The notes below the pieces were generated by a model that was not told where the DNA came from, ran no database searches, and saw nothing but the letters and a program-made list of their open reading frames with translations. 64,000 nt of DNA from Acidobacteriota bacterium (GTDB taxonomy: Bacteria > Acidobacteriota > UBA6911 > RPQK01 > CBDEGM01). Positions 8,365-61,352 of the stretch are shown piece after piece. A program made the position numbers and the translations under genes. How positions within the stretch are numbered: the first letter of the stretch is position 1; the number at the start of each line of letters is the position of its first letter. Location: NCBI GenBank assembly GCA_965237715.1, contig CBDEGM010000002.1:67234-131233 (forward strand), written 5' to 3'.

Positions 8365-8657
8365 AAAGCTAATATAAACCAGATTGAATTTATCCTTTTC
8401 AGGGCGGGAACGTCCAGCTGAAAGCCTTGATGCAGGTTAGAATAGTAATTCGACATTCCTCATATCAACTTGGAAGGACCTTTTCCAGTCTCCCCAGTGA
8501 ATGACCACAACTTATCAGACCGCCAACCTTGCCTCAAGTGGTCTTTGGTCCTCTGTCCATCAAAAGCGCCTCTGATCCCTTGGTTTTCTAGGTGGCTTTT
8601 GGTCAAAAACCTGATCAATAGAGACACCTCCAGCGGTTCAATCAGAAACCCTCGGCG

Positions 8658-8860
8658 CTAGGCTGTCATCCATCTCAATCGATCAATCCGAGACAACAGC
8701 CCGGCCCATATATCCTTGCTTATCGCTACCTCCGCCATCTGAAACGTGACGATCCGGCTATGGCGGATCACCTTCGCTCCGATCTTGATCAGTTTGGTCA
8801 ACAGGTTGCGAAGGGACCAATGTTTGATTTTTCTGGGAAGGACTAGACGCCGTAGAAAAT
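8658..8860 (-). pseudogene. C-terminal fragment of the IS1380-family transposase, cut by the IS256 insertion
   Basis: Its translation ...RRLVLPRKIKHWSLRNLLTKLIKIGAKVIRHSRIVTFQMAEVAISKDIWAGLLSRIDRLRWMTA equals the C-terminus of the 443-aa transposase at 50752-52083. Confidence 0.7.
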
Positions 8861-10295: not shown

Positions 10296-10546
10296 TAGAA
10301 AATTGCCCAGGTTGTAGGCCAAGACAAACAGAGCCAACCTCACCTGATTCGGGACAAAGCGCTGGCAGGACAGGCGAGTCCAGTGCAACGCATACTTGCC
10401 TTCCTTGATCCACTGCTCGGCTGTGCCACGACCGTTATAGAAGTGAACCACCCCGGGTGTTAATGCTCACTGAGAACCGTAGTTTTTTGGACACCCGCCG
10501 GTAGTTAACTCAACATCATCCGCACCGCAGGTGCGCGTTTCATCAT

Positions 10547-11194: not shown

Positions 11195-12679
11195 ATGATC
11201 GATCGAGAACTGCTCGCCCGAATCCGCCATCTTTTCCATGCCGAACATTGGAAGATCGGGACCATTGCTGATCACTTGGGGCTTCACTGGGAGACCGTGC
11301 GCCAGGCTCTCCAGACCGATCGCTTCAATCGCCAGAAGATGGAACGGCCCCGTCTGACCGATCCCTACCTTCCCTTTATCCGAGAGACCCTGGAGCGCTA
11401 CCCTCGGCTTCGTGTCACGCGTCTGTTCGAGATGCTGCGCGCCCGGGGCTACACGGGCTCGGTCGTGCAGTTGCGGCGCGTGGTGGCCACGCTGCGCCCC
11501 ACCCCTCGGGAGGCCTTCCTGCGTCTGCGGACCTTCCCGGGGGAGGCGGGTCAAGCCGACTGGGCGCACTTCGGTAAAGTCCGGGTGGGCCGTGCCGAGC
11601 GCATCCTGTCCTGCTTTGTGTTCACCCCCTCCTATTCGCGGGCGCTGTTTCTGGAGTTTTGTTTTGACCAGCAAATGGAAAACTTCCTGCGCGCTCACAT
11701 CCACGCCTTCGAAGACATCGGTTGTCCACGCACCATCCTGTACGACAACACCAAAAGCGTCGTGTTGGAACGTCGGGGCGAGGCTGTTCACTTTCATCCG
11801 CGCCTGTTGGAGCTGGCCGCCCATTATCACTTTGCGCCACGCCCCTGCCACCCCTACCGGGCTTCCGAGAAAGGGCGCGTCGAAAGAGCCATCTCCTATG
11901 TGCGCCATTCCTTCTTCGCCGCCCGTCCCTTTAGCACGCTCTCAGACTTCAACCGTCAAGCGCTCCTCTGGCGCGACCAGGTAGCGCATCGTCGGCCCTG
12001 GCCCGGCGGCGATGGGCGCACCGTCGAGGAAGTGTGGGAGGAAGAAAAAGCCTTCCTTCTTCCCTTGCCGGCTCATCGCCTGGAAACCGATCTGGTTCTG
12101 CCGGTCCGCTCCCGCAAAACCATCTACATCCGTTTTGATTTAAACGACTATTCGATCCCGCCTTCGGCCGTGGGCCGGCCCCTGACACTGGTGGCCTCCG
12201 AGCAGACGGTGCGCATTTTGGACGGAAGCACCGAGATCGCCCGCCATCTCCGCTCCTATGACCGCCACGACGTCCGCACCGATCCGGCTCACCAGGAAGC
12301 GCTGCTGGCGGAAAAACGCCAGGCGCTGGGGGCCACCCCCGGTGGCCGACTGCTGGCCGCCGTTCCGGAAACGGAAACCTTGCTGGACGAGGCCTTTCAG
12401 CGCGGAGAGCCCACCGGCCGCCAGACGGCCAAGCTGGTGGAACTCTTGGATCTCTATGGGGCCGAAGAGCTGCAGGCGGCGGTGCGTGAAGCCCTGCAAC
12501 GGGGCACCCCGCGCGCCGCCTCGGTGGCCTTTCTGCTGGGCCGGCGCCAGCGCGCTCAGGGGCGAAAGGCGCCTCTACCCATTGAGTTGCGCCAGCGTCC
12601 CGAACTGGAGGACCTCTATGTCCAATCCCATAACCCGGAGACCTATGACGAACTGGCTTCCGATGACGACGAATCCTGA
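11195..12679 (+). CDS. istA: IS21-family transposase IstA
   Basis: 494 aa with an N-terminal HTH, a DDE integrase core, and an acidic C-terminus (DDDES). GGAGGG lies 8 nt upstream of the ATG. Confidence 0.85.
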
Positions 12680-21279: not shown

Positions 21280-22713
21280 GAGGCTGCCCCAAACTCAGTT
21301 GAAAGTGAAGGGCGGTTCAGGTTGAGCACGATCTTAAGCCACCTTTCGTTTGGCGTCCATAGAAACCTCGTCTCTGAGTTTGGCTTTCAGCATCCAGAGG
21401 TCCTGGTAGCCCTGGATGCGCCGGAAGTTCTTCTCCGTCTCCAGGAAGGCTGAGGCGACCCAGCGCAGCACCATCTGGCTATCTTTCCAGCGGCTCACTC
21501 GGCGGGTCCGCATCCTCACGCCAGAGTGAGGGCTTTCAATCAGGTTGGTGCTGGCCAGACACAAGCGCAGGGAGGAAGACAACTCGAGTCGATTGATGGT
21601 GAAGGTCTCTTCCAGACCTTCTCGCAGGCTAGCTGCCGCATCGGGATGCAGCCCTTCGAGCCACTCCGCCTGCTTTCTGAGCCGAACCCTCCCTTCTTCC
21701 CAGGGCAGCCGATAAGCAGCCTGCATCACTGACTTGACTTGCTCGGCCAGATCGTCCGGCAATCGATCGCACACGTTGCGAATCTTATGACGACGACATC
21801 TCTGCACCGGACTGCCCTTGCCAAAGACCTTGTCAATGGCACATCGCAGGGCCCTGGAGCCGTCAATCACAAACAGATAGCGTCGCCCGGAATCCAGGCC
21901 TCGCTCCACCAGGTCTTCCAGCAAGGAGGTAGCGGTGGCGGCGTTTTCACTGGCCCCTTCCCGCAGCCCCAGCACGTGCTTTTGGCCCTCCGAGTCCACG
22001 CCGGCGGCACAGATCACGTGGTGCTCGCCAAAGACCAGGCCGTCGATGTAGATGATCAGAAACTCAACGTCATCAAAGTGTCGCTCGGCCAGCTGCTCCA
22101 GCTGCTGGCCGCTCTGCTCAATGAACTGACGGCTCACGGACGATTTGCTGACTCCCACCGTGTCGGCCATCTGGGGGATCACGCGGCTGTAGTGGCGCGT
22201 GGAAACGTTGCACGTCAAGATCTCCAGCATGCGGCTGCCCAGCTCCCCGTTACGGTTGATCGCCTCATAGGCGGGGATCTCCACCTCCCCGCCTCGACCT
22301 TGGCCTTTCTTGCGCAGCCGTGGCTTTCGAACCCGCACTTGCCGCTCCGAAAGTCTGACTCGCCCTGGCTGAGTGCCGTACCAAACGACCTGCTTGCCTG
22401 GGCGCCCTTGTTGCTTTTCGCCGGCGACACTTCGGGCAGAAAGCTGCAAGACCGCTTCCATGCTCGCTCGCCCCAGGATGTCGATCAACTCGTCAATGGC
22501 CATCCGGGAGGCTTCGATCAGCTCCACCATCGGGAGCAACAGTTGCCCGTTCTGGGCCAGATAATCAGCCAGCCCCTGACTGTTCTTCCGGGTGACAATT
22601 CGATATGATTTCTTCATGGCGGTTCCTCCTTAAAAGGTTGTTGACCAACCCGATTCTAACGAGTCGGTCGGACGAACCGCCTCTCAACTTTCAACTAAAC
22701 CCGGGACAGTCTC
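21280..22713 (-). mobile_element. IS256-family copy 2 with a perfect 8-bp target duplication cccggctc
   Basis: Same termini as copy 1. Direct repeats at 21272-21279 and 22714-22721. Inserted between thrC and lutA. Confidence 0.85.
21334..22617 (-). CDS. IS256-family transposase (copy 2)
   Basis: 427 aa, differing at 2 residues from copy 1. Confidence 0.85.
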   Translation of the reverse strand: MKKSYRIVTRKNSQGLADYLAQNGQLLLPMVELIEASRMAIDELIDILGRASMEAVLQLSARSVAGEKQQGRPGKQVVWYGTQPGRVRLSERQVRVRKPRLRKKGQGRGGEVEIPAYEAINRNGELGSRMLEILTCNVSTRHYSRVIPQMADTVGVSKSSVSRQFIEQSGQQLEQLAERHFDDVEFLIIYIDGLVFGEHHVICAAGVDSEGQKHVLGLREGASENAATATSLLEDLVERGLDSGRRYLFVIDGSRALRCAIDKVFGKGSPVQRCRRHKIRNVCDRLPDDLAEQVKSVMQAAYRLPWEEGRVRLRKQAEWLEGLHPDAAASLREGLEETFTINRLELSSSLRLCLASTNLIESPHSGVRMRTRRVSRWKDSQMVLRWVASAFLETEKNFRRIQGYQDLWMLKAKLRDEVSMDAKRKVA

Positions 22714-22905: not shown

Positions 22906-23625
22906 ATGAAGGTTTCCTTGTTTGTGACTTGCCTGGTGGACCAACTGTTTCCTCAGGTTGGTCTCAGCACGGTCAGGATACTGAAGAAACTGGGGGTGGA
23001 AGTGGATTTCGATCCCCGTCAGACCTGCTGTGGGCAGCCGGCTTTCAACAGCGGCTACGCTGAGGAAGCCTGCCAGGTGGCGCGAAGTTTTATTGAGGTC
23101 TACAAGAACTCGCTTCCCCTTGTCATTCCCTCTGGATCCTGCTGCACCATGATCAAGGTATTTTTGCCAAAGCTTTTCGAGGAAGGGTCTCGTGATCACC
23201 AGCTGGCCAGGCAGATTGCAGATCAATCCTATGAGCTTTCCGATTTTTTGATTTCAGTTCTGGGAGTGAACGAGACGGGGGCGAGCTTTTCTGGTGCCGT
23301 GACCTATCACGATTCCTGTCATCTGCTGCGTGAGCTGGGAATCTTTCGGCAGCCGCGGGAACTGATACAGGCCGTGAAAGGAATTGAGTTTCGGGAGATG
23401 GAAGATTCCACTCGATGCTGTGGCTTTGGTGGAACCTTTTCGGTGAAGTTCGCTGACGTTTCCGCAGCAATCGGCGAGGATAAGGTCCAGCGTATTCTCG
23501 ATTCAGGAGCTGGCTGTGTGATTGCCAACGACGTCAGCTGCCTAATGCATATTGAGGGTCTGCTCCGACGTAGCAATACCCCGGTTCGAACCATGCACAT
23601 CGCCGAACTGCTGGCCAGGTTCTAG
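22906..23625 (+). CDS. lutA: Lactate utilization protein A (Fe-S oxidoreductase, CCG domains)
   Basis: 239 aa with two cysteine-rich CCG-type motifs (CCGQPAF, CCGFGGTF), followed by lutB and lutC. Confidence 0.8.
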   Translation: MKVSLFVTCLVDQLFPQVGLSTVRILKKLGVEVDFDPRQTCCGQPAFNSGYAEEACQVARSFIEVYKNSLPLVIPSGSCCTMIKVFLPKLFEEGSRDHQLARQIADQSYELSDFLISVLGVNETGASFSGAVTYHDSCHLLRELGIFRQPRELIQAVKGIEFREMEDSTRCCGFGGTFSVKFADVSAAIGEDKVQRILDSGAGCVIANDVSCLMHIEGLLRRSNTPVRTMHIAELLARF

Positions 23626-25038
23626 ATGATCAAGATTACCTCCAGTACCCGGAAGGCCTTACAGGACGCTCAGCTGCAGAGAAATCTGAGCCACACACTG
23701 GGCAAGACGATCCATTCGCGCAACCAGGCGGTGGCAAAAGTTTCCAACTGGGAGCAACTTCGTCAGCATGGCCACGATGTGAAGACCCATACCCTCTCTA
23801 GACTGGCAGAGTACCTGGAGCAGCTGGAAGAGCAGGTTCGCGATCGAGGGGGTCAGGTCAAATGGGCGGAAACGGGAGAAGAAGCCGTTCGATTCATTCT
23901 TGACCTGGCGCGCCAAAAGGGCATTAGCAAGGTAGTCAAGAGCAAAACGATGGTAGGCGAAGAGATTCACCTCAATGAAGGTTTAGAGAAAGCCCACATT
24001 CAACCGGTGGAGACAGATCTGGGAGAATATATCATCCAACTTTCTCGGGAAACCCCTTCTCACATCATCGCGCCGGCCCTGCACAAGTCTCGGGGCGAGA
24101 TCGCCGACCTTTTTGCGGAAAAGCTGCAGATGGAGCCTAGCGAAGACGTGCAAAGCATTACCACGACGGCACGAAAGCTGCTTCGGAATCACTTTCTCAC
24201 TGCGCGCATGAGCATCACTGGTGTGAATTTTGCCGTGGCGGAGACGGGAACCATAGTCATTGTGGAAAACGAGGGAAACGCGCGCATCTCGGTTTCGGCT
24301 CCCCAGATCCACGTGGCCTTGATGGGGATCGAAAAAGTGATCCCTCGGAGTTCGGATCTTGCCGTGTTCTTGAAACTGCTCGCTCATAGCGCTACAGGGC
24401 AAAAGGCGACGAGTTATGTGAACTTCATCAGCGGAGCGCGCCGTGCTGGAGAGTTGGATGGACCTGAGGAGTTTTACCTGGTTCTTGTCGACAACGGCCG
24501 GAGTAGGCTGCTCGCTGATCCCTTCCTCAGGCAGACCTTATTCTGCATTCGTTGCGGGGCTTGCCTGAACGTGTGTCCGGTCTATCAGAGAATTGGAGGA
24601 CATGCCTACAATTCAACCTACCCGGGACCGATTGGAGCAATCCTGACGCCACAGTTGCTGTCGGTGAGCGAAGCACCTGAGCATCCGTTCGCTTCATCGC
24701 TTTGTGGCGCCTGCTATGAGACCTGCCCTGTCAAGATCGAGATCCCTCACATTTTGTTGAATCTGCGTGAAAAGGTTCAGCGGAGCAAGAACGAGAGAGC
24801 TACATCCGTACCCCTAGAAAAACTTGCCATGCAGATTTGGGCGTGGGCAATGGGATCCTCGGCCAACTATTCTCGCGCGGGAAGATGGGCCCGGTTCCTT
24901 CTGAAGCCGTTTCAGCGAAATGGACGGCTGGAGATCCCTTTTCCTCCTTTCCGTCGTTGGATGGAAAAGAGGGACTTGCCTGTTCTTGCACCCAGGAGTT
25001 TCCGTGAGCTTTACGAAGGCGAGGAAGAAGCGTCATGA
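23626..25038 (+). CDS. lutB: Lactate utilization protein B (4Fe-4S ferredoxin-type, DUF162/LUD)
   Basis: 470 aa with two CxxCxxC..CP ferredoxin motifs (CIRCGACLNVCP, CGACYETCP). Confidence 0.8.
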   Translation: MIKITSSTRKALQDAQLQRNLSHTLGKTIHSRNQAVAKVSNWEQLRQHGHDVKTHTLSRLAEYLEQLEEQVRDRGGQVKWAETGEEAVRFILDLARQKGISKVVKSKTMVGEEIHLNEGLEKAHIQPVETDLGEYIIQLSRETPSHIIAPALHKSRGEIADLFAEKLQMEPSEDVQSITTTARKLLRNHFLTARMSITGVNFAVAETGTIVIVENEGNARISVSAPQIHVALMGIEKVIPRSSDLAVFLKLLAHSATGQKATSYVNFISGARRAGELDGPEEFYLVLVDNGRSRLLADPFLRQTLFCIRCGACLNVCPVYQRIGGHAYNSTYPGPIGAILTPQLLSVSEAPEHPFASSLCGACYETCPVKIEIPHILLNLREKVQRSKNERATSVPLEKLAMQIWAWAMGSSANYSRAGRWARFLLKPFQRNGRLEIPFPPFRRWMEKRDLPVLAPRSFRELYEGEEEAS

Positions 25039-25739
25039 GTCGTTCTGTGCTGTTGGAGAAAATTCGTCATGCCTCGAGACTGGCTTCAGCATCCCCCTCG
25101 CAGCTTCCCCAGCTTCCCTCCCAGCTTCCTGAGTTTCCCTGCTGGGAAGACCCCATAGCTACATTCTCTGATGAGCTGCAAGAGGTTGGAGGCGTTTTTA
25201 TCGACGCTCGCAGGGAGGACCAGCTGGCCGCCGCACTCTCGGTGATTTTGGAACAGGCCGGATCGACAGAAATCTACTGGGAAGGAGGGAAGATTTTCGA
25301 GAAACATGACCTTCCCTATTCACTTCGTCACCCTGATGCGCTCGCTCAGGGCGATTTACTCTATAGCTTTCATTTCGGCAGCAGCGTCAAATTTCCCTTG
25401 ATTCTGAATTCCAAGCCGTGGGAAAGGAGGGACTTGGCGCGGGTGACCCTTTCCATCAGCAGTGCGCTTTACGGGGTCGCCGAAACAGGGAGTATCGTTC
25501 ATCAGGTCACAACAGGAACGGGACGGCTGCTGTCGGTGCTGCCCTTGGTGCATGCTGTGCTGCTTTCCGAAAAGGACCTGCTTTCAAACCATAGGGAATT
25601 GTTTGAGACTTTACGTTTCCAGGACTGTGGGAGTGCGGTAACGATCATCACAGGGCCCAGTCGCACCGCAGACATCGAAAAGACGCTGATCCTTGGTGTG
25701 CATGGCCCTCAATATTGGTACGTGATCCTGACCCGCTAG
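25035..25739 (+). CDS. lutC: Lactate utilization protein C (LUD domain)
   Basis: 234 aa. Its start overlaps the lutB stop (ATGA). LutC/YkgG-like by operon position. Confidence 0.7.
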   Translation: MSRSVLLEKIRHASRLASASPSQLPQLPSQLPEFPCWEDPIATFSDELQEVGGVFIDARREDQLAAALSVILEQAGSTEIYWEGGKIFEKHDLPYSLRHPDALAQGDLLYSFHFGSSVKFPLILNSKPWERRDLARVTLSISSALYGVAETGSIVHQVTTGTGRLLSVLPLVHAVLLSEKDLLSNHRELFETLRFQDCGSAVTIITGPSRTADIEKTLILGVHGPQYWYVILTR

Positions 25740-25797
25740 TCCCCTCCTCGGAGGGGTGCCGCGAAGCGGCGGGGTGGGTATTCCCCTCCTCTATCCA

Positions 25798-26030
25798 CTG
25801 ACCTGCATTTCTCATCACCCCCCTACTGCATCGGCGTCGCCTTCACCTGAGCGAAGTGAAGAAATCATCCGTCTGGACGGCGTTGCGCTCGTTCGGCCTC
25901 CTAGACTTACTGCGAGAGTACGCCTGCGGGGGCCTCGGTCGCGCCTTGTCCGGCCGGCCCTTCCGCCGCGTGACACGAGTGTCTTGACACGAGTGTCTCG
26001 TGACGAGCAGTGATGAGAAATGCAGGTCAG
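25798..26030. repeat. MITE-like element, family 2, with 21-bp perfect terminal inverted repeats ctgacctgcatttctcatcac
   Basis: 25798-25818 is the reverse complement of 26010-26030. The core ...ctactgcatcggcgtcgccttcacctgagcgaagtgaagaaatcatccgtc... is shared with 41083-41290 and partly with 7534-7612 and 43417-43598. It overlaps the stop codon of the downstream gene. Confidence 0.7.
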
Positions 26031-26818
26031 AATTTTCCCTTGAAGCGTTCTTTGCCGGGCATGATCTCCATGCAGGTGGTCCACCAGCCGGTCTGAATCG
26101 TTGCGATGAACTCCCCGGGCAATGCCTCCTCTTTCATCTCCCGGGCCAACCTAGGGTGATCATAGGTAAGAGGGCGAAACTCACAGTGAAAGGTTCCGTC
26201 GGAGAAATCGAGCAGCGTAAACCACACGTTCCTTGCACCGTCGTTTTCAGGTCGGCCGATCACGCCCACATTGATAAAGTGCCTTCCCGCGGACAAGACC
26301 CGATGCCACTTGATGCCCGTGTGGGTACAGCAGATCACGTCGGCATTGTAATCTGTCGTGAATTTCCATAAGAAGTGATCCGGCGAGGTGCTTTCCCAAA
26401 GAAATTCGTTTGTCTGCCGGGGAGATCCGTGGCAAAGGACGATCTTTAAGGGGCCCAGATAGAATCGCCGGAATCGGGGCAGCGTGCCCAGCCAGGCCTT
26501 GTTCTCGGATGAGGTGTTCTCAAAGGTATAGTCGTAACTGATTTGGGCGAAGTAATTATCCCGGGGGTCGGCGTAGCCACATCCACAGTCTTCCTTTTCT
26601 TCGGCCAGGGAAACGTCGTAATTTCCGGCAATGCTCGAGATCTTGTTCCCGCGCAGTATGGGAAAGCACAGATCCGGGAAAGGGCCGAACCCGCCCATGT
26701 CTCCAAGACAGAAGATCGCGTCCACACCTGCCTTTTCACAATCGAGGAGGACTTGTTTCAGTGCCAGATGGTTATTGTAGACGCCACCGAAGAGAGCAAC
26801 TTTTCCATAACGCTCCAT
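26027..26818 (-). CDS. Metallophosphoesterase (calcineurin-like phosphoesterase)
   Basis: Motifs LGDMGGFGP, GNYD and CHGSP...ICCTHTG. The start is chosen at MERYGKV; the track ORF extends to 26854. Confidence 0.7.
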   Translation of the reverse strand: MERYGKVALFGGVYNNHLALKQVLLDCEKAGVDAIFCLGDMGGFGPFPDLCFPILRGNKISSIAGNYDVSLAEEKEDCGCGYADPRDNYFAQISYDYTFENTSSENKAWLGTLPRFRRFYLGPLKIVLCHGSPRQTNEFLWESTSPDHFLWKFTTDYNADVICCTHTGIKWHRVLSAGRHFINVGVIGRPENDGARNVWFTLLDFSDGTFHCEFRPLTYDHPRLAREMKEEALPGEFIATIQTGWWTTCMEIMPGKERFKGKF

Positions 26819-26910
26819 GATTTCTCTACCGCGACCGACACCCCTTAGCCCCAACGGGGCGGTATGAAATAGCCAGGGGCGTCAGCCCCTGGATTCGGGG
26901 ATCATCCCTT

Positions 26911-26956: not shown

Positions 26957-28391
26957 GGAGGCTGCCCCAAACTCAGTTGAAAGTGAAGGGCGGTTCAGGT
27001 TGAGCACGATCTTAAGCCACCTTTCGTTTGGCGTCCATAGAAACCTCGTCTCTGAGTTTGGCTTTCAGCATCCAGAGGTCCTGGTAGCCCTGGATGCGCC
27101 GGAAGTTCTTCTCCGTCTCCAGGAAGGCTGAGGCGGCCCAGCGCAGCACCATCTGGCTATCTTTCCAGCGGCTCACTCGGCGGGTCCGCATCCTCACGCC
27201 AGAGTGAGGGCTTTCAATCAGGTTGGTGCTGGCCAGACACAAGCGCAGGGAGGAAGACAACTCGAGTCGATTGATGGTGAAGGTCTCTTCCAGACCTTCT
27301 CGCAGGCTAGCTGCCGCATCGGGATGCAGCCCTTCGAGCCACTCCGCCTGCTTTCTGAGCCGAACCCTCCCTTCTTCCCAGGGCAGCCGATAAGCAGCCT
27401 GCATCACTGACTTGACTTGCTCGGCCAGATCGTCCGGCAATCGATCGCACACGTTGCGAATCTTATGACGACGACATCTCTGCACCGGACTGCCCTTGCC
27501 AAAGACCTTGTCAATGGCACATCGCAGGGCCCTGGAGCCGTCAATCACAAACAGATAGCGTCGCCCGGAATCCAGGCCTCGCTCCACCAGGTCTTCCAGC
27601 AAGGAGGTAGCGGTGGCGGCGTTTTCACTGGCCCCTTCCCGCAGCCCCAGCACGTGCTTTTGGCCCTCCGAGTCCACGCCGGCGGCACAGATCACGTGGT
27701 GCTCGCCAAAGACCAGGCCGTCGATGTAGATGATCAGAAACTCAACGTCATCAAAGTGTCGCTCGGCCAGCTGCTCCAGCTGCTGGCCGCTCTGCTCAAT
27801 GAACTGACGGCTCACGGACGATTTGCTGACTCCCGCCGTGTCGGCCATCTGGGGGATCACGCGGCTGTAGTGGCGCGTGGAAACGTTGCACATCAAGATC
27901 TCCAGCATGCGGCTGCCCAGCTCCCCGTTACGGTTGATCGCCTCATAGGCGGGGATCTCCACCTCCCCGCCTCGACCTTGGCCTTTCTTGCGCAGCCGTG
28001 GCTTTCGAATCCGCACTTGCCGCTCCGAAAGTCTGACTCGCCCTGGCTGAGTGCCGTACCAAACAATCTGCTTGCCTGGGCGCCCTTGTTGCTTTTCGCC
28101 GGCGACACTTCGGGCAGAAAGCTGCAAGACCGCTTCCATGCTCGCTCGCCCCAGGATGTCGATCAACTCGTCAATGGCCATCCGGGAGGCTTCGATCAGC
28201 TCCACCATCGGGAGCAACAGTTGCCCGTTCTGGGCCAGATAATCAGCCAGCCCCTGACTGTTCTTCCGGGTGACAATTCGATATGATTTCTTCATGGCGG
28301 TTCCTCCTTAAAAGGTTGTTGACCAACCCGATTCCAACGAGTCGGTCGGACGAACCGCCTCTCAACTTTCAACTAAACCCGGGACAGTCTC
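26957..28391 (-). mobile_element. IS256-family copy 3 (1435 bp) without a target-site duplication
   Basis: Identical termini, but the flanking 8-mers differ (gggcttgc vs tggtaggg). One side is a truncated MITE and the other is a truncated DUF1800 gene. Confidence 0.85.
27012..28295 (-). CDS. IS256-family transposase (copy 3)
   Basis: 427 aa with a few substitutions relative to copies 1 and 2. Confidence 0.85.
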   Translation of the reverse strand: MKKSYRIVTRKNSQGLADYLAQNGQLLLPMVELIEASRMAIDELIDILGRASMEAVLQLSARSVAGEKQQGRPGKQIVWYGTQPGRVRLSERQVRIRKPRLRKKGQGRGGEVEIPAYEAINRNGELGSRMLEILMCNVSTRHYSRVIPQMADTAGVSKSSVSRQFIEQSGQQLEQLAERHFDDVEFLIIYIDGLVFGEHHVICAAGVDSEGQKHVLGLREGASENAATATSLLEDLVERGLDSGRRYLFVIDGSRALRCAIDKVFGKGSPVQRCRRHKIRNVCDRLPDDLAEQVKSVMQAAYRLPWEEGRVRLRKQAEWLEGLHPDAAASLREGLEETFTINRLELSSSLRLCLASTNLIESPHSGVRMRTRRVSRWKDSQMVLRWAASAFLETEKNFRRIQGYQDLWMLKAKLRDEVSMDAKRKVA

Positions 28392-29252
28392 TGGTAGGGT
28401 GCGTCGACGCCCACGGTATGAAGCTCCAGCAGCTCCCTGGCGTAGTTCTCGTTGAGACCTTTGGCTCGGAAAAGTGCCGGTGTGGGACCGAAGATTCCAG
28501 CCATCATCCGATGTCGATCTTCCCGATTCATGGAGCGGCGCCGGCCAGCTCGGTGTCTCGGCGCCTTTTCCTTCATCCGCTGCCGGATGACTGCCTCAGG
28601 CGCCGAGCTTAGCCAATTGTCAAGGTAGTAGAGCATGGCGGGACTCCTGGCGACGGAGACGAGGAGATCCTCGAATCTACCCAGCGCGTTGGGACGAACG
28701 ACCTCTTCTTCAAACTGGGTAGTGAGAAATCGATCCCACTGCTTCGGCATGAAGACATTGAAGTGGTTCATCCAGAAGTCCACCATCATTTCAAACAATT
28801 GATGCTGGCTATGCACGGCCCGGATCAGCTTCGCCTGAGTGAGCTCGAGCTGGATCTGGCGCTGGCGCCGCCGCATGTCCGCCATCTCCATCCGGGCCTC
28901 TTCCCGCACCTTCTCATCCTCCGACCGGCGTTTCTCGCGCAAACGCCGATCGAACCGAGGCGGTGAAAATGTGTCCACCAGTTCCTTCGGAGTCATCTTT
29001 AAAGTTGAGGTTGGCGAGTCGCGCCACGCCAGAGGGGTCCCTACCCGAGGGCTCCAGCTGCTCTTCCAGGAAGGTCCTCCACCCCATCGCTTTGACCCTT
29101 TCCAGGTCTCCGGGGCGCGCACCGAAAGTAATTCGGCTCAGCAGGTGAAGCACCTTCTGATCTTCCGACAAAGCCTCATCACGGCTGGATGCTAAAGACA
29201 GCGAACTGTCCAGGGAGAATAAAGTGAGGAAACAAAGTGCGATGGCTCTCAT
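28392..29252 (-). pseudogene. DUF1800-family protein gene, frameshifted near 28914-29122 and truncated at its 3' end by IS256 copy 3
   Basis: The N-terminal ORF (signal peptide + LSRITFGARPGDLERVKAMGWRTFLEEQL) and the body ORF (DFWMNHFNV, MLYYLDNWLS, LNENYARELLELHTVGV) are in different frames. The coding sequence stops at the IS boundary, whereas family members are typically about 450-500 aa. Confidence 0.55.
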
Positions 29253-29565
29253 CCCGACCTCCGGTTCTAAGAAGCGAGCCCCAGGTGGGGAAAGCGGATG
29301 CCCGTTGGGGCTTACTTTTCCCTCCCTGAAACTATTTGATCATACGCCCCCTTCATAGGTTCAATACGAAGCGTATTTCCATCTGTTTCAGACCGCGGAT
29401 GACGCGGATGGAGAGAGTCAGACGATACCCAGAGACCTGTGAGACACAGATCGGCTCCTTGACCCTTCTTTTTTCTGCACGATAGAATCTGGTACTTATT
29501 GCCAAAGTTCGACTTATGGAGCTGCGCTTTCTCCTTTTCGTCACAAGAACCCATGAATAGAAACG

Positions 29566-30681
29566 ATGACATCTACAGTCTCGACGAGTAATCAGCATCT
29601 TGAAGACAAAGTGCGCTCTGCAAGGGAACAACTGGAAACCCATGTACGGGAGATCATAGAGTGGCACTTCAACCCGCGGACCGGATGCCCTTTCTGGCTC
29701 CAATGGGCCGATAAGGCGGGCTGGGACCCACGTGCTGAGATCAAGGGCTTCCACGATCTGGCAAAGTTCGGCCACTTTGAGGACGAGTGGCTGCGCGGAG
29801 GACCGGTTCGGCGCTGGGTACCCAAGGCATACGCCGATCGTCCCATCTACGTTTTCGAAACGGGGGGAACCACAGGCGTTCCCAAATCACGGGTCAACAT
29901 CGAAGACTTCCGGATTGACTACGAAATCTTCTCCGAAACCCTGCCCGACGAATATTTCCCCAAAGGAGCCAACTGGCTAATGCTGGGCCCTTCGGGGCCG
30001 CGCCGCTTGCGTCTGGCGGTCGAGCACCTGGCCCAGTATCGAGGTGGCATCTGCTTCTGCGTCGACCTGGATCCCCGCTGGGTCATCACGCTCATGAAAA
30101 AAGGATCGATGGATCAGCTCAAAGCCTACCAGCAGCACGTGATCCACCAGGCGGTCACGATCCTGACGGCCGGGCACGACATCCGATGCCTGTTCACCAC
30201 ACCCAAGCTTCTGCAGGCACTGGCCCATCATCTGGAAACCCAGGAATCGAGCATCCGGCAGACGGGCATCACGGGGATCTTCTCCGGCGGCACCGAGTTT
30301 ACGCCCCAATGGCACCGTTTTGCTGTGGAGGAGCTGCTTGACGGCGTCTACATGACACCCACCTACGGCAACACGCTTATGGGCCTGGCGGCCTCCAAGC
30401 CGTTTGACCCCGCGGACCAGTACAAGATCACCTACCATGCTCCTCAGCCTCGGGCTGTGTTGGAAGTGGTGTCCTTCGACGACACGGGAAAAGCAGTGGA
30501 CTATGGCCAGACGGGCCGCGTGATGCTGACGACGCTCACCAAAGAGTTTTTCATGCCACGTTTTCTGGAGCGCGACGAGGGAGAGCGCGAGCCGCCCTGC
30601 GCGGCCTACCCATGGCCCGGAGTCAGCGGCGTTCGCCCCTACCATGAGTTCGCATCGACAACAATCGTAGGAGTATATTGA
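29566..30681 (+). CDS. Adenylate-forming acyl-protein synthetase, LuxE/PaaK-like
   Basis: 371 aa. The phosphate-binding motif is FETGGTTGVPKS, and the length and architecture are LuxE-like. It is paired with a LuxC-like reductase 82 nt downstream. Confidence 0.45.
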   Translation: MTSTVSTSNQHLEDKVRSAREQLETHVREIIEWHFNPRTGCPFWLQWADKAGWDPRAEIKGFHDLAKFGHFEDEWLRGGPVRRWVPKAYADRPIYVFETGGTTGVPKSRVNIEDFRIDYEIFSETLPDEYFPKGANWLMLGPSGPRRLRLAVEHLAQYRGGICFCVDLDPRWVITLMKKGSMDQLKAYQQHVIHQAVTILTAGHDIRCLFTTPKLLQALAHHLETQESSIRQTGITGIFSGGTEFTPQWHRFAVEELLDGVYMTPTYGNTLMGLAASKPFDPADQYKITYHAPQPRAVLEVVSFDDTGKAVDYGQTGRVMLTTLTKEFFMPRFLERDEGEREPPCAAYPWPGVSGVRPYHEFASTTIVGVY

Positions 30682-30762
30682 GACCGTTTTTTCGCGGCCT
30701 GAGGCCGCTCCTACGTTCTCATTCCGTGAGAACCAGAAGGTAGGAGCCGCCTCAGGCGGCGA

Positions 30763-32214
30763 ATGAGGGGTAAAATCATTTATATGATTCATTTTCCTAT
30801 TCTTCGCTGGGGAGAACCTTACAAGAGTCTGGAGGTGGAGCGGGTAGTCCACCTGGTCACGGGAGAACTGTTGGCCGAGGTGAGCCAGGCCAACTCCGGG
30901 TTGATCCAGCGGGACATGCGTCAGGCTCAACGAGCACGGGACATCTTGCGCGAGATCCCCTGCAGTGAGCTGCTCCACATGGTGAAAAAGGCGGCGCAGT
31001 CGTTCACGAAGGACGAACTTCCCGCCGGGGACGGCACCCAAACGCCAGATCAGTTCGTCAGCTACCAGTCGGCCACGACGGGGCTACCTGAGCACATGTG
31101 CCGCAAGAACATGGAGAAACTCCACTACGTACTCACGAACCTGGACAGGATTCTCGCCTCGCTTACCAGAGGGCTCGATCTAGAGATACTGACCGCAGGC
31201 CGCGGTGAAGAAAACGGCGTGATGCGCAGCTTCCAGGCCCACGCACCCGTGCTGGGCATGGTGCTGCCCTCCAATTCCCCGGGGGTACATGGTCTGTGGC
31301 TGCCGGTGATTCCCCTGCAGATCGGACTGGTCCTCAAGCCGGGCCCTCAGGAGCCATGGACCCCCTACCGGATGACCCAGGCGTTTTTCCAGTGTGGGGT
31401 GCCGCCTCAGGCCATGGCTCTGTATCCCGGATCGGGCGAGGTGGGAGCGGCCGTTCTCGAACACTGTCCCCTGAACCTGATTTTTGGCGGCACCCAGACG
31501 GTCGAGCAGTACCGAGGCAACCCCTCTGTTCAGGTGCACGGTCCGGGGTTCAGCAAGATCCTGTTGGGCGATGATCAGGCGGACGATTGGGAACAATATC
31601 TGGATCTGATGGTAGAGAGCGTGCTCATGAACAGCGGCCGAAGCTGCATCAACTGCTCGAGTATCTGGATTTCCCGAAACGCCCGGGAAATCGCCGAGGC
31701 CCTGGCTCAGCGTCTGGGCCCAATCGTTCCCACGCCCCTGGAAGATCCTGAGGCCAAACTGGCGGCCTTCAGCGTCCCGGCGCAAGCTGAAGCCATCCAT
31801 GCCGCTATCGAAGAAGGCCTCCGGGAACCTGGAGTGATCGACATCACAGCCCCGCATCGCGACGGTGCTTCGCTGCTCTCCCAGCAGCGCTGTGCCTATT
31901 TGCACCCCCGCGTCATCCTGTGCGATTCGCCTGAGCGAACGTTGGCCAATGTCGAATACATGTTTCCTTTTGTGAGCGTCGTCGAGTGCCCGCAGCAGAA
32001 GATGCTGAATTCAATTGGCTCCACCCTGGTAGCCACCGGAATCACGCAAGACCCGGACTTTCAGGCTCAGATTCTGGATTGTACTGAGATTGACCGATTG
32101 AATCTGGGACCGATTCCTACCACGCAGCTCAACTGGCTGCAGCCTCATGAAGGCAATCTGGTGGACTTCCTGTTTCGGGCCCGAGCCTTCCAGGCGCGGG
32201 GATCACGCGGATGA
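30763..32214 (+). CDS. Aldehyde-dehydrogenase-superfamily acyl-CoA/acyl-protein reductase, LuxC-like
   Basis: 483 aa with an ALDH-like catalytic Cys context (NSGRSCINCS) and a length matching LuxC (about 480 aa). Confidence 0.45.
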   Translation: MRGKIIYMIHFPILRWGEPYKSLEVERVVHLVTGELLAEVSQANSGLIQRDMRQAQRARDILREIPCSELLHMVKKAAQSFTKDELPAGDGTQTPDQFVSYQSATTGLPEHMCRKNMEKLHYVLTNLDRILASLTRGLDLEILTAGRGEENGVMRSFQAHAPVLGMVLPSNSPGVHGLWLPVIPLQIGLVLKPGPQEPWTPYRMTQAFFQCGVPPQAMALYPGSGEVGAAVLEHCPLNLIFGGTQTVEQYRGNPSVQVHGPGFSKILLGDDQADDWEQYLDLMVESVLMNSGRSCINCSSIWISRNAREIAEALAQRLGPIVPTPLEDPEAKLAAFSVPAQAEAIHAAIEEGLREPGVIDITAPHRDGASLLSQQRCAYLHPRVILCDSPERTLANVEYMFPFVSVVECPQQKMLNSIGSTLVATGITQDPDFQAQILDCTEIDRLNLGPIPTTQLNWLQPHEGNLVDFLFRARAFQARGSRG

Positions 32215-32276
32215 GAACGGATTGACGCGGATCATCATCCGTGAATATCCGCGATGATCCGCGTTATCCGCGGTTT

Positions 32277-33317
32277 TTACTCCCCCACCTGCAAAGCTGA
32301 ATATTGATAGCTCCAGATGGTTACCACTGCGTAGAGCAGCAATAAAAACAGCCCAAAAGAGCGCTTGAAGGTCTGGTGTGAGAAAAAGATCCCCAGGCGG
32401 AAGGTAACCAGCAGGGAAAGCATAGCGGGAAACAGAAGAGTAAAAAAGATAGGCCCCGCCTGCAGTCCTCCCGGAGTGACCGAGGCCGCAGCCCCCGCCA
32501 CGAAGAGGACATTCAGAATGTCGGCACCGATGACGTTGCCTAGCGCCAAATCACCGTGTTGTCGCCGCACAGCCGTGATTGCGGTCACCAGCTCTGGAAG
32601 AGAGGTTCCGAACGCCACCAGCGTGGCGGCGATGACGCTGGCGGGAACGCCGAAACGCTGTGCGGTCTCGGTAGCGGCAGCAATCAGGAAATGGGAAGAA
32701 ACCACCACCAGAATCACGGCTCCGACAAGCTTCGACAGGATCAAGGGGAGTGACACATCGGGCACGCCTTCCAGCTCTTCCACGGCGGAACGATCCTGCT
32801 CTCGCCTGACCCACACAATGGATTGGCGAAGGTAAACCCCAAGGAGGACCAGGAAGACGATCCCCATCAGTTGAGAGAGGCGCCCACCCTCACGGAACAA
32901 TTCACCTGACGCGAACCACGGGAAGCAGGCCAGAACGAGCAGAACTCCGCTTCCCAGCTGGATCCAGCCCTGCCGGCTCAGGATTTTCTGCTGCAGTGGA
33001 AGCCGTCCCAGCAGAGAACTCAATCCCAGAATCAAGCCCGTGTCACAGATCACCGACCCCACTGCATTGCCGAGAGCCAGTCCCGGATTTCCACGTAGGG
33101 CAGCAAGAACCGAAACCGCCGCCTCGGGGGTGGTGGTTCCGAGGCTGACCACGGTGGCTCCTACGATGACTTTGGGAAGGCCGGACTTCCTGGAGAGCAC
33201 AACAGCCGCCCGCACCAGCCAGTCTGCGCTCTTCCCCAGCACAGCGATGCTGGCCACTAAAAGCAGGAAAAGCCATGGCGTGCTCAGCTGGGGTATCAGC
33301 CCGTCCAGTTGTCCCAT
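32277..33317 (-). CDS. Na+/Ca2+ exchanger family membrane protein (CaCA, YrbG-like)
   Basis: 346 aa with two alpha-repeat motifs, GNAVGSVICDTGLILG and GNVIGADILNVLFVAG. Confidence 0.8.
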   Translation of the reverse strand: MGQLDGLIPQLSTPWLFLLLVASIAVLGKSADWLVRAAVVLSRKSGLPKVIVGATVVSLGTTTPEAAVSVLAALRGNPGLALGNAVGSVICDTGLILGLSSLLGRLPLQQKILSRQGWIQLGSGVLLVLACFPWFASGELFREGGRLSQLMGIVFLVLLGVYLRQSIVWVRREQDRSAVEELEGVPDVSLPLILSKLVGAVILVVVSSHFLIAAATETAQRFGVPASVIAATLVAFGTSLPELVTAITAVRRQHGDLALGNVIGADILNVLFVAGAAASVTPGGLQAGPIFFTLLFPAMLSLLVTFRLGIFFSHQTFKRSFGLFLLLLYAVVTIWSYQYSALQVGE

Positions 33318-49405: not shown

Positions 49406-49771
49406 ATGAACCCCAGACAGATCAAAGCAGTTGAAATCGCATCCCGATTTAAAATTCAAGAGAAGGAAGGGAAGTGGGTCGTTCCTTCCCAGAGCAAAAG
49501 CGGCACCTACGCCGTCGGGCTCAACGGGACTCCCCGCTGCACCTGCCCTGACTTCGACACTCGCGGGGTAGTCTGCAAGCACATCATGGCCGTCCAGATA
49601 ACGATTGAAGAACTGCTCAACGGAAACGGCACCAAGACCGTTAAGGAGAGCGTCAGCGTCACCGAGACGGTCAAGCGCACCTACACGCAGGACTGGCCCA
49701 CCTACAACAACTCCCAGGTCCACGAGAAGGACCAGTTCCAGGTCTTGCTCAAGGAACAGTGGCGTTCCTGA
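49406..49771 (+). CDS. Transposase OrfA: SWIM-type zinc-finger domain
   Basis: CTCPDFDTRGVVCKH has the CxC...CxH SWIM signature. RBS gaggaaaa. It overlaps orfB by 167 nt. Confidence 0.55.
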   Translation: MNPRQIKAVEIASRFKIQEKEGKWVVPSQSKSGTYAVGLNGTPRCTCPDFDTRGVVCKHIMAVQITIEELLNGNGTKTVKESVSVTETVKRTYTQDWPTYNNSQVHEKDQFQVLLKEQWRS

Positions 49772-50621
49772 GCCCACCAGGGATAAAACTGGGCGCAAGC
49801 CTATCCCTGTATCGGATGCTCTCTTTGCGGCTGCGTTCAAGGTCTACAGCACGGTTTCCGGACGCCGTTTCATGAGCGATCTGAGGGACGCCCACACCAA
49901 GGGTTTCATCGGGAAGGCTCCCCACTACAACAGCATCTTCAAGAAACCCGAGTTGACTGAAACTCTCCAGGGGCTTATCACCCAATCGGCCCTTCCTCTG
50001 GCGACGGTTGAGCGAACCTTCGCCGTGGACGCCTCTGGCTTCAGCACTTCCCGGTTCGACAGGTGGGTTGAGTACAAGTGGGGGGAAAAAGGCTCCAGGC
50101 GTGAATGGCTCAAGGCGCACCTGATGTGCGGCACGCAGACCAATATCGTCACCGCTGCCCAGGTCACGGACGGCAAGAAGAACGATGCTCCCTTTCTCCC
50201 ACCCCTGCTGAACACGACCGCTCAGTACTTTCCGGTGGAGGAAGTTTCGGCAGACAAGGGATACCTCAGCCGTCAGAATGTCCACGCCATCGCTGAGGCC
50301 GGGGCGACCCCCTACATCGCCTTCAAGTCCAACAGCAAACCCGAGGACAAGATCACGAGTGCGTGGAACCAGATGTTCCGACACTTCAGCTCTCGGCGGG
50401 AGGAATTTCTGGACCGTTACCACCGGCGCTCGAACGTCGAGACTGCCTTCTCGATGATTAAGCGGAAGTTCGGAGACTTCCTCAGAAGCAAAGGCGACAC
50501 GTCGATGGTGAACGAGGCTCTTTGCAAGATCCTCTGCCACAACATCGTCGTGGTGATCCACGAAATGTCCGAACTGGGGGTCCAGCCCGTTTTTGTGCAG
50601 AAACCTAGTGTTGCCCATTAA
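49605..50621 (+). CDS. Transposase OrfB: IS4/IS5-type DDE domain
   Basis: D (FAVDASGF), D (VSADKGYLS) and E within YHRRSNVETAFSMIKRKFG, the IS4/IS5 R-x3-E-x3-K signature. It is in the +1 frame relative to orfA. Confidence 0.6.
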   Translation: MKNCSTETAPRPLRRASASPRRSSAPTRRTGPPTTTPRSTRRTSSRSCSRNSGVPEPTRDKTGRKPIPVSDALFAAAFKVYSTVSGRRFMSDLRDAHTKGFIGKAPHYNSIFKKPELTETLQGLITQSALPLATVERTFAVDASGFSTSRFDRWVEYKWGEKGSRREWLKAHLMCGTQTNIVTAAQVTDGKKNDAPFLPPLLNTTAQYFPVEEVSADKGYLSRQNVHAIAEAGATPYIAFKSNSKPEDKITSAWNQMFRHFSSRREEFLDRYHRRSNVETAFSMIKRKFGDFLRSKGDTSMVNEALCKILCHNIVVVIHEMSELGVQPVFVQKPSVAH

Positions 50622-50643: not shown

Positions 50644-52140
50644 CCTCTGTCCATCAAAAGCGCCTCTGATCCCTCGGTTTCCCAGGTGGCTTTTGGTCAA
50701 AAACCTGATCAATAGAGACACCTCCAGCGGTTCAATCAGAAACCCTCGGCGCTAGGCTGTCATCCATCTCAATCGATCAATCCGAGACAACAGCCCGGCC
50801 CATATATCCTTGCTTACCGCTACCTCCGCCATCTGAAACGTGACGATCCGGCTATGGCGGATCACCTTCGCTCCGATCTTGATCAGTTTGGTCAACAGGC
50901 TGCGAAGGGACCAATGTTTGATTTTTCTGGGAAGGACCAGCCGCCGTAGAAAATTGCCCAGGTTGCAGGCCAAGACAAACAGAGCCAACCTCACCTGATT
51001 CGGGACAAAGCGCTGGCAGGACAGGCGAGTCCAGTGCAACGCATACTTGCCTTCCTTGATCCACTGCTCGGCTGTGCCACGACCGTTATAGAAGTGAACC
51101 ACCCCTGAGGCTTGTGCGCTCATATTGGTGACGATGAAACCCACCCTCGGAAAGAGTTCTCCGCGATGCCACCCGACCTTGGCAATCACCCGGCGAGGCC
51201 GGTCCCAACTGGCGGCTTGATATTGGAAATCGGCGAACCAAACGATAGGCTTTCGGGGCGGACGGCCCACAGGCCGGGTAAGCAGGTGTTCAATCTCCGC
51301 CTGAAGCACCTCGTTGGCAGGAAGCCGGATGGCATACAAAAAGCCCTTCTCCTCCAAGTATTCATAAACGTCCGGCTTGGCAAAGGCAGCATCCCCACGA
51401 AAGTATTTGCGGACTGTTTTCTTCTCGTAGCGAGCCACGATTGGTTCCAGCATCTCCTTCCAACCATCCGCGCTGTGAACATTGCCGGGCCGAAGCATTG
51501 CACCTTCGCAATCTCCGAACTGGTTGAAACAAAACAGGGGATGGTAGCAAGTACATCGGAAATGGCCGTTGTAGGCAGAGGCTTCCTGCTCGCCATGGAC
51601 AGGACTGGCTGAGCTGTCCATATCCAGAATGATGCGTCGATGAGTTGTTTTCTCCAGCGCTCTTTCTACCCATCGGCCATTAACTTCCGAAAGGGCTTTG
51701 AGGTTCCCCTGGACGGACAGCATCTCGGTCTCAAATCGACCCATGGTGTTGGCGCTGGCGGCCTTCTTCTTGTCCATCTTCTTCCCGGTGATCCTCCGCA
51801 TAGTCGGATCCACCGATAGACGATGGGCATCGTTGACATCTTCATAGCCAGCCAGTCGACTGTATACCGATTGGCGCAGCAACGACGCCAGGTCGTGCTG
51901 GATGTTACGCCCTGTCCGCGAATCGCGAAAAACGGAGGGAACACTATCGAATAACACCAACGCTTCGTCCAAATCACGATAGGCGAGAAGCCCAGCATCC
52001 GAGGTGACCTTAGCCCCATGAAATTCAAGCCTCAAACTGCCATCAAAACCGGCCTTCAAACCTTCACCCTTTGGGTCAGCCATTTCTTGCTCCCTTTATG
52101 CTCTATATCTACTTTGATTATAGTAGTTTACATCGATTAA
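50644..52140 (-). mobile_element. IS1380-family copy B, main body (transposase-proximal end not precisely resolved)
   Basis: Carries the intact 443-aa transposase. Its left part is collinear with copy A. Confidence 0.6.
50752..52083 (-). CDS. IS1380-family DDE transposase
   Basis: 443 aa with an N-terminal ...LRLEFHGAKVTSDAGLLAYRDLDEAL... region and a DDE core. Confidence 0.65.
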   Translation of the reverse strand: MADPKGEGLKAGFDGSLRLEFHGAKVTSDAGLLAYRDLDEALVLFDSVPSVFRDSRTGRNIQHDLASLLRQSVYSRLAGYEDVNDAHRLSVDPTMRRITGKKMDKKKAASANTMGRFETEMLSVQGNLKALSEVNGRWVERALEKTTHRRIILDMDSSASPVHGEQEASAYNGHFRCTCYHPLFCFNQFGDCEGAMLRPGNVHSADGWKEMLEPIVARYEKKTVRKYFRGDAAFAKPDVYEYLEEKGFLYAIRLPANEVLQAEIEHLLTRPVGRPPRKPIVWFADFQYQAASWDRPRRVIAKVGWHRGELFPRVGFIVTNMSAQASGVVHFYNGRGTAEQWIKEGKYALHWTRLSCQRFVPNQVRLALFVLACNLGNFLRRLVLPRKIKHWSLRSLLTKLIKIGAKVIRHSRIVTFQMAEVAVSKDIWAGLLSRIDRLRWMTA

Positions 52141-60620: not shown

Positions 60621-61285
60621 CAGAGTGGTTGCAGACGCCCGTCGATCAGTTCCCGGCGAGCTGGAAAGCGGGCGGCCAATTCTGCGCTGTGCGTGACCGC
60701 GACCAGAATGGTTTCCTGGCGGCGGTGCAGATCGAACAGAAGCGACGTCACCTTCTCGGCTGAGTGGCGGTCCAGATTGCCCGTAGGCTCATCACAGAGG
60801 AGCAGAAGGGGCTCTCTGATGAGCGCCCGAGCCAGCGCAACGCGCTGTTTCTCTCCACCGGAGAGTTGGGAGGGTCGCTGACTGAGCCTGGGAGTCAGAC
60901 CGACCTGGTCAAGCAGGGAGCGCGCTCGTTCCAGGTAGTTGTTCCTCGAGGTCGAGACCAGGGTCGGGGCCAGAACATTCTCCAGAACCGAGCATTGAGG
61001 GAGCAGGCAATGATCCTGGAAAACAAACCCCACTTTTTCACCTCTGAAAGCCGCCAGCTTGTTTTCTTTCAGTTGGAACGGGTCTTGCCCATCTAACCGG
61101 ACTGTCCCTTTCGAAGGGAGTTCCAGCGCGCCCAGGATATACAATAGGGTACTCTTGCCGCAGCCTGAGGGCCCCATGATCGAGACTGCGTCACCACGGA
61201 CCAAAGAAAGAGAGACCCCTGAGAGTACGGGGAAGGGCCCATGGGGAGTCGGGTATTCCTTGCTGAGGGCTGTAACTTCTAGCAA
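60620..61285 (-). CDS. ABC transporter ATP-binding protein (YbbA/LolD-like)
   Basis: GPSGCGKSTL, LSGGEKQRVALARAL and LLLCDEPTGNLD. Confidence 0.85.
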   Translation of the reverse strand: MLEVTALSKEYPTPHGPFPVLSGVSLSLVRGDAVSIMGPSGCGKSTLLYILGALELPSKGTVRLDGQDPFQLKENKLAAFRGEKVGFVFQDHCLLPQCSVLENVLAPTLVSTSRNNYLERARSLLDQVGLTPRLSQRPSQLSGGEKQRVALARALIREPLLLLCDEPTGNLDRHSAEKVTSLLFDLHRRQETILVAVTHSAELAARFPARRELIDGRLQPL

Positions 61286-61295
61286 CTTCGCTCTG

Positions 61296-61352
61296 GGTTC
61301 CTTTGTGTCTTAGTGGTTTCCGTTTTTTACCACAAAGACACTAAGACACCAA
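61296..61352. repeat. Copy of the ACCACAAAGACAC(C/T)AAGACACCAAG motif between the ABC ATPase and GT genes
   Basis: ctttgtgtcttagtggtttccgttttttaccacaaagacactaagacaccaagcc. Confidence 0.45.

Follow-up and report, generated by a model that had tools for sequence, protein, structure and literature searches.

To our knowledge, only two antibiotic pathways have so far provided examples of two-protein carboxylate reductases of the GriC/GriD and EhpF/EhpG type, which are covered by no curated Pfam or NCBIfam model. EhpF and EhpG, the former with structures 3HGU, 3HGV and 3L2K, act in the biosynthesis of the phenazine D-alanylgriseoluteic acid in Pantoea agglomerans. In grixazone biosynthesis, the AMP-binding protein GriC together with GriD is reported to convert 3-amino-4-hydroxybenzoate (3,4-AHBA) via the acyl-AMP into the aldehyde, as stated in PMC10179220 with reference to Suzuki et al. 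2007. Here we describe a gene pair at positions 29566–32214 (+ strand) of a 64,000-nucleotide stretch of the Acidobacteriota contig CBDEGM010000002.1, the whole of which is referred to below as the window. The pair probably encodes a carboxylate reductase of two subunits that consumes ATP and NAD(P)H and is built like GriC/GriD and homologous to EhpF/EhpG. We arrive at this assignment because gene 1 is homologous to EhpF over its full length, its neighbour is an EhpG-type partner, and GriC/GriD provide a precedent for such a couple.

Gene 1 (29566–30681, + strand), identified by ORF (open reading frame) calling and by its homology to EhpF as the putative EhpF/GriC-type adenylating subunit, encodes 371 amino acids and contains FETGGTTGVPKSR, which includes the P-loop GGTTGVPK. 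Gene 2 (30763–32214, + strand), the putative EhpG/GriD-type reductase subunit of the aldehyde dehydrogenase (ALDH) superfamily, encodes 483 amino acids as an ORF and contains MNSGRSCINCSS, in which NSGRSC places a cysteine in an NxGxxC context. Both ORFs are thus present as described in the initial annotation, which had listed an adenylate-forming enzyme with GGTTGVPK and an ALDH-superfamily protein with such a cysteine; the spacing of 82 nt given there is to be corrected to 81 nt between the listed ORFs. Because the homologues of gene 2 measure 472–476 amino acids and begin with MIHFPILRWGEPY, its conserved start is probably the ATG at 30784, which would yield a protein of 476 amino acids and an intergenic gap of 102 nt, and residue numbers in gene 2 (Asn164, Cys288, Glu391) are counted from this ATG. 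Both genes are genuine and conserved, since each protein has thousands of homologues at 70–86% identity, with E-values down to 1e-275.

A phmmer search of the PDB with gene 1 returned EhpF from P. agglomerans phenazine biosynthesis (3HGU) as the sole match (E 3e-41, 29% identity), with residues 24–360 of 371 aligning to residues 24–357 of 369 in EhpF, and a profile built from the clade of the window protein retrieved EhpF at E 2e-46, the next match following at E 0.006. As in EhpF, the protein consists of the N-terminal domain of the ANL superfamily and lacks the usual C-terminal domain; its Pfam match to the AMP-binding family PF00501 is marginal (33.8 bits, residues 202–321). Besides the P-loop it carries the motifs YGNT and ERDEG and ends in GVY. 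A C-terminal G-x-Y closes all 33 family members compared, bacterial and archaeal alike (GVY in 27, among them the window protein and EhpF, GLY in four, GAY and GMY in one each), and this conserved free C-terminus may replace part of the lost catalytic ANL C-terminal domain. Foldseek, queried with a low-confidence AlphaFold2 (AF2) model of gene 1 (predicted local distance difference test, pLDDT, 61), likewise ranked EhpF first and PaaK-type ligases second; the clade alignments are too shallow for good models of either protein (pLDDT 61–62), and this search serves as a fold-level check only. For both genes the only NCBIfam matches lie far below the cut-off, and the six EhpF-like proteins scanned from outside the window clade (EhpF, three plasmid-borne proteins and two representatives) have no NCBIfam match at E ≤ 1e-5. 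Streptomyces homologues of gene 1, at 31–35% identity, are named “arylcarboxylate reductase” by NCBI. In a neighbour-joining tree, calculated without support values, the window clade forms a group of its own, separate from EhpF as well as from the proteins of Streptomyces and the haloarchaea. We also considered gene 1 as a CoA ligase of the PaaK or F390-synthetase kind and rejected this, there being no PaaK or F390 model among its NCBIfam matches, its C-terminus coinciding with that of EhpF, and PaaK folds coming only second.

Gene 2 matches PF00171 (Aldedh) above threshold but weakly (68.8 bits), and its best, though weak, NCBIfam matches are oxidising ALDHs. End-to-end alignments were obtained with EhpG (24% identity, E 6e-28, 102 bits), with the partner protein of the haloarchaeon Halalkalicoccus (27% identity, E 2e-34, 121 bits) and with the ALDH-like partner of an EhpF-like gene in Streptomyces goshikiensis, whereas the best scores against solved ALDHs in the PDB are only 48–52 bits. 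Gene 2 is thus closer to EhpG-type partners than to canonical ALDHs (102–121 versus at most 52 bits), in a comparison that is approximate as the two sets of scores come from different programs. Its active site retains the oxyanion residue Asn164 (PSNSP against PWNFP in maize ALDH, ZmALDH), the catalytic Cys288 (NSGRSC against NKGEAC in the maize enzyme) and the nucleotide-ribose residue Glu391, and the C-terminal motif reads PHEG. The ELGGKS motif of ALDHs, which bears the general-base glutamate, is replaced by VHGPGFS, and GPGxS is invariant in gene 2, EhpG and the Streptomyces and haloarchaeal partners; the general-base glutamate for thioester hydrolysis is therefore absent. His252 occupies its position in 22 of 22 clade members, while N164, G253-P-G255-x-S257, C288 and Glu391 are invariant in the family alignment. 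Judged from its sequence, gene 2 is not a conventional NAD-ALDH, because its PF00171 score is so low and the general-base glutamate has been lost, and an ALDH fold that forms a thioester and does not hydrolyse it would fit a reductase, not an oxidising ALDH. The initial annotation had set against its own proposal an assignment of gene 1 to the phenylacetate-CoA ligase/F390-synthetase family together with that of gene 2 to a conventional NAD-ALDH family. One half of this applies, in that gene 1 sits in the PaaK-like branch of the ANL enzymes by way of EhpF, and the other half does not.

The pairing of the two genes is obligate: 73 of 79 related loci, which come from three phyla, have them side by side on the same strand, and this adjacency is found on Pantoea plasmids, where the gene after ehpF (EhpG) is labelled “aldehyde dehydrogenase family protein”, in S. 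goshikiensis and in Halalkalicoccus. In the reaction that we propose, gene 1, having neither a C-terminal domain nor a carrier protein, would adenylate a free carboxylic acid to the acyl-AMP, the acyl group would move to Cys288 of gene 2 to give a thioester in an ALDH fold devoid of the water-activating glutamate, and hydride transfer from NAD(P)H would free the aldehyde. The homology, the conserved catalytic residues and the pairing are shown; we infer in which direction the reaction runs, that the acyl group moves to the cysteine, and which cofactor is used. Other loci of this genome would supply the enzymes that deal with the aldehyde, while relatives carry an Fe-alcohol dehydrogenase (Fe-ADH) directly downstream. 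This Fe-ADH speaks for a reductase, as does an omega-aminotransferase fused to an EhpF-like domain, both enzyme types being consumers of aldehydes. The fusion is a natural one and was met in the search of representative proteins (P0342, 824 amino acids), a distant relative that joins a class-III omega-aminotransferase to an EhpF-like adenylating domain and hints that some family members feed a route from acid via aldehyde to amine. We had also considered it as a fusion of EhpG to EhpF, which is ruled out by its N-terminal half being the omega-aminotransferase. As to the substrate, our best guess is an imported carboxylate that is small and either aromatic or polar, and not a fatty acid. Several points weigh against assigning the pair as a reductase. 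The proteins of the pair are no more than 24–35% identical to EhpF, EhpG and their Streptomyces counterparts, and the function of the clade would be assigned by homology and analogy. The reduction of phenazine-1,6-dicarboxylate by EhpF/EhpG reportedly is itself a proposal, made by Bera et al. in 2010 from structure and genetics. The likeness to GriC/GriD is one of design and description only, the relationship being indirect; the AF2 models are too poor for active-site geometry; and in the window no aldehyde-using gene adjoins the pair downstream.

Were the pair not a reductase, gene 2 would oxidise an aldehyde or be a CoA-acylating ALDH, and gene 1 would activate the acid so formed for ligation to an amine, an alcohol, CoA or a carrier, the two forming a catabolic or an amide- or ester-forming couple. 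We consider this unlikely. Some Streptomyces plasmids have a type I polyketide synthase gene and not an ALDH-like gene after the EhpF-like gene, and family members may therefore pass the acyl-AMP to other acceptors; the oxidising ALDHs among the weak NCBIfam matches of gene 2 point the same way. Hydrolytic aldehyde oxidation is opposed, however, by the family-wide loss of the general-base glutamate in the partner proteins, no acceptor-providing gene is conserved beside the pair, the strict two-gene adjacency mirrors the GriC/GriD precedent, and the associations with aldehyde-consuming Fe-ADH and aminotransferase fit reduction.

The initial annotation had proposed a LuxE/LuxC-like pair, in which case gene 1 would load an activated long-chain fatty acid onto a C-terminal cysteine of its own, and gene 2 would accept the acyl group and reduce it, the fatty aldehyde serving lipid or wax metabolism. 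The sizes of the proteins (371 and ~476 amino acids), the gene order, the ANL and ALDH-like superfamilies and the catalytic cysteine are compatible with this, and the reaction would be of the same kind. When the hidden Markov models were run, however, neither PF04443 (LuxE) nor PF05893 (LuxC) matched either protein at E ≤ 10, PF00501 and PF00171 being the only Pfam families reported, and there is no Lux model among the NCBIfam matches of either protein. Sequence profiles and Foldseek retrieve PaaK-type ligases and EhpF, which in the phmmer search was the one solved structure to match gene 1, with no chain described as LuxE or LuxC among the matches listed. LuxE has an acyl-accepting cysteine conserved close to its C-terminus, whereas gene 1 has a single cysteine in that region, C345, which only 21 of 25 clade members retain and which EhpF lacks. 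Of the 59 ORFs called in the window, 50 were scanned against Pfam, comprising all those of at least 200 codons (the other nine measure 70–192 codons each), and no luciferase-like, LuxD-like or other acyltransferase gene was found, which bears out the earlier remark that neither an acyltransferase nor luxAB is nearby, and the window is likewise without lux or lipid genes. Relatives have small-solute symporters and group-III Fe-ADHs beside the pair, and these transporter and dehydrogenase types handle small polar molecules. A fatty-acid substrate finds no support. For the two relatives to which a substrate has been assigned it is an aromatic acid, demonstrated for GriC/GriD and proposed for EhpF/EhpG. 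We therefore regard a fatty acid reductase of the Lux type as highly unlikely. What stands of the initial annotation, which had spoken of a stand-alone acyl-reduction module, is the logic of activation followed by reduction, through homology to EhpF/EhpG and analogy to GriC/GriD; the Lux family and the fatty-acid substrate do not.

Gene neighbourhoods were compared in 20-kb loci from the 80 best species, of which 41 belong to the Planctomycetota, 35 to the Acidobacteriota (many of them Vicinamibacterales), three to the Verrucomicrobiota and one to another phylum. The most frequent neighbours are BamB/PQQ-like beta-propeller lipoproteins (34 of the 80 loci), followed by the Fe-ADH (20 loci), which comes after the pair and is also present in a sister subclade, an ABC ATPase (17), an FtsX-type permease (16), a HemN/ChuW-like radical S-adenosylmethionine (SAM) protein (15), a GT4 glycosyltransferase (14), a PaaK-like ligase (6) and a 4HBT thioesterase (4). 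An Na+/solute symporter is often near the pair in relatives, and in the haloarchaeon it lies directly upstream. The complete operon is seen in a closely related subclade (~60% identity) from Verrucomicrobiota and Planctomycetota, with the order beta-propellers, DUF3311, Na+/solute symporter, EhpF-like gene, ALDH-like gene, Fe-ADH, beta-propeller, radical SAM protein, a 185-amino-acid protein of unknown function, a flavoprotein (CmlS/QhpG/geranylgeranyl-reductase-like), GT4 and thioesterase. Loci with the conserved cluster around the pair are L091, L093, L095 and L096 (also L043, L052, L055, L072, L077, L079, L025 and L032), variants having either a small unknown or a GcvH-like protein and either the flavoprotein or a 4Fe-4S protein. 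In many Vicinamibacterales (L008–L023) a gene for a small secreted DUF4399 protein (~173 amino acids) lies between the adenylating and the ALDH-like genes. These neighbours fit an aldehyde intermediate formed from an imported small carboxylate. More tentatively, the pair might be the core of a widespread undescribed pathway in Acidobacteriota, Planctomycetota and Verrucomicrobiota, with import by the symporter, reduction to the aldehyde, conversion to the alcohol by the Fe-ADH, tailoring by the radical SAM protein and flavoprotein, glycosylation by GT4 and export by the FtsX-type ABC system, of which the window would hold a dispersed version; we see this as a possibility and no stronger. If it is true, the high conservation across phyla would reflect a specific, physiologically important substrate and not a secondary metabolite. 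Substrate ideas taken from neighbours (a glutamate-1-semialdehyde/proline route, ether lipids, quinone modification, heme degradation) reach beyond the 20-kb loci, and none is claimed.

Upstream of the pair, a sigma-70-like promoter match (29459–29488, + strand; TTGACC, 18-nt spacer, TAGAAT) lies ~80 nt before gene 1; it is a match to the consensus only, with one found against 1.8 expected in the region, and is weak evidence. A terminator-like hairpin (32259–32273, + strand; CCGCG-TTATC-CGCGG) with TTTTT after it, in an element spanning 32259–32283 and also a consensus match only, begins 45 nt past the stop of gene 2, and it is possible that the two sites bracket the pair as a two-gene unit. 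Between the genes there is a long, nearly perfect hairpin (30683–30771, + strand; −63 kcal/mol, z = −9.5, with 0 of 200 shuffles as stable), whose 3′ base covers GAGGGG, the would-be ribosome-binding site for the ATG at 30784. Of the 51 spacers between related pairs, 11 contain a comparably strong hairpin (12 of 52 including the window), as do 24 of the 288 remaining same-strand spacers of these loci. Those between related pairs come from three phyla and are non-homologous, many of them arising from tandem heptamer repeats (for instance in L074, L025, L037 and L044). With a background of 8% and only ~2.6-fold enrichment between the pair genes, we have downgraded the hairpin as a special conserved regulatory element.

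In the window the pair stands alone among many insertion sequences (ISs), as it does in many relatives. Upstream lies a truncated DUF1800 gene (28373–29122) that abuts the third copy of an IS256-family element, and downstream are a Ca2+/Na+ antiporter, Skp, a peptide ABC transporter, a peptidase and a short-chain dehydrogenase/reductase; no orthologue of the symporter, radical SAM protein, beta-propeller, flavoprotein or thioesterase of the relatives' cluster occurs in the window. At 25–30 kb from the pair, on the other strand and beside an IS1595 transposase, Pfam recognises an FtsX/MacB-type ABC permease of 1,143 amino acids with a double-FtsX arrangement (57189–60620, − strand), an ABC ATPase (60620–61285, − strand) and a GT4 glycosyltransferase (61341–62627, − strand), with 52, 67 and 62% identity, respectively, to the neighbours of the pair in the relatives' loci L010 and L006. 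As orthologues of these three genes directly follow the pair in other Acidobacteriota, they are possibly associated with it here on grounds of synteny, which suggests that the cluster was split by rearrangement in the window. A divergent Fe-ADH next to this block (62707–63984, + strand) was ruled out as an orthologue of the cluster Fe-ADH, with 27–32% identity versus 47–55% among true orthologues.

The three IS256-family copies (8861–10295, + strand; 21280–22713, − strand; 26957–28391, − strand) are 100% identical over 1,434 bp and encode a 427-amino-acid transposase. Copies 2 and 3, in the same orientation, flank a lutABC-like lactate-utilisation operon and a metallophosphoesterase (22906–26854) in the manner of a composite transposon. 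Copy 1 appears to interrupt another IS, of which it would be the second copy in the window, because the flanks of copy 1 (8550–8849 and 10296–10454) recur with 98–99% identity at 50644–51105, beside a DDE_Tnp_1_4 gene (50752–52083). Other transposase genes are of the Mu-like/rve (11195–12679), DDE_Tnp_1 (49605–50621) and IS1595 (56000–57034) types, and the window as a whole is unusually rich in ISs. An alternative in which the pair is decaying after IS-driven rearrangement left it isolated, and has lost its function in this genome, would accord with these three identical copies and four other transposase genes, with the DUF1800 gene truncated at an IS end and with the usual partner genes lying 25 kb off or missing, but is extremely improbable given two full-length ORFs with all clade-invariant residues, closest relatives at 84–86% identity, promoter-like and terminator-like sites on either side and the many relatives in which the pair is also alone.

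The clade to which the putative carboxylate reductase of the window belongs is large. A search with gene 1 among 1.84 billion representatives clustered at 50% identity gave no more than 1,515 relatives at E ≤ 1e-3, in which the window clade is represented by one full-length sequence (P0246, 65% identity); at 90% identity the clade resolves into more than 8,000 clusters, with the pair present in at least 590 GTDB species. Median identities across phyla are 65–69% for gene 1 and 62–68% for gene 2, much higher than those of the accessory genes (45–51% for the Fe-ADH, 51–56% for the radical SAM protein, 35–39% for GT4); such conservation could stem from strong constraint, from frequent transfer or from both. 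Clade members are annotated merely as “hypothetical”, “PaaK-like” or “aldehyde dehydrogenase family”, and a literature search on the clade or on “arylcarboxylate reductase” returned nothing. The present work thus places the branch that is by far the family's largest and best conserved outside antibiotic clusters, in abundant soil and aquatic phyla. Identification of its substrate would annotate thousands of genes and might yield a new route of carboxylate assimilation, or one of envelope or cofactor biosynthesis, as well as a carrier-free carboxylate reductase for biocatalysis.

Compared with known systems, the pair is closest to EhpF/EhpG. Gene 1 shares with EhpF its length, the missing ANL C-terminal domain, GGTTGxPK, DPRWV, ERD and the C-terminal GVY, gene 2 shares with EhpG the motifs PxN, GPGxS, GxxC and the C-terminal H(E/D)G..FL, and gene order and adjacency are the same. 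It differs in that the window clade forms a separate tight branch in other phyla and with other neighbours; modification of a phenazine in situ is ruled out, as the window lacks phenazine core genes (phzA/B, D, E, F, G). With GriC/GriD of Streptomyces griseus, as far as the account in PMC10179220 describes them, the pair would share the design in which the acyl-AMP comes from an AMP-binding protein and is reduced to the aldehyde by an ALDH-like one, whereas no 3,4-AHBA genes of the griH/griI type or other genes of aromatic metabolites are found near the window pair. LuxE/LuxC also comprise two proteins of similar sizes, with ANL-type activation and cysteine- and NADPH-dependent reduction to the aldehyde in the ALDH superfamily, but belong to other Pfam families, and in the window pair the conserved C-terminal acyl-accepting cysteine, luxD/luxAB and any sign of a fatty acid are missing. 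Single-chain carboxylic acid reductases (CARs; adenylation, peptidyl carrier protein and reductase domains, A-PCP-R, EC 1.2.1.30) would have the same net conversion of acid, ATP and NADPH into aldehyde, AMP and PPi, yet they employ a phosphopantetheine arm and an SDR-type reductase domain, unlike the window pair with its carrier-free build, ALDH fold and catalytic cysteine. The enzyme type as such is already known; the clade of the pair is huge, highly conserved and unannotated, and it is tied to a multi-gene cluster.

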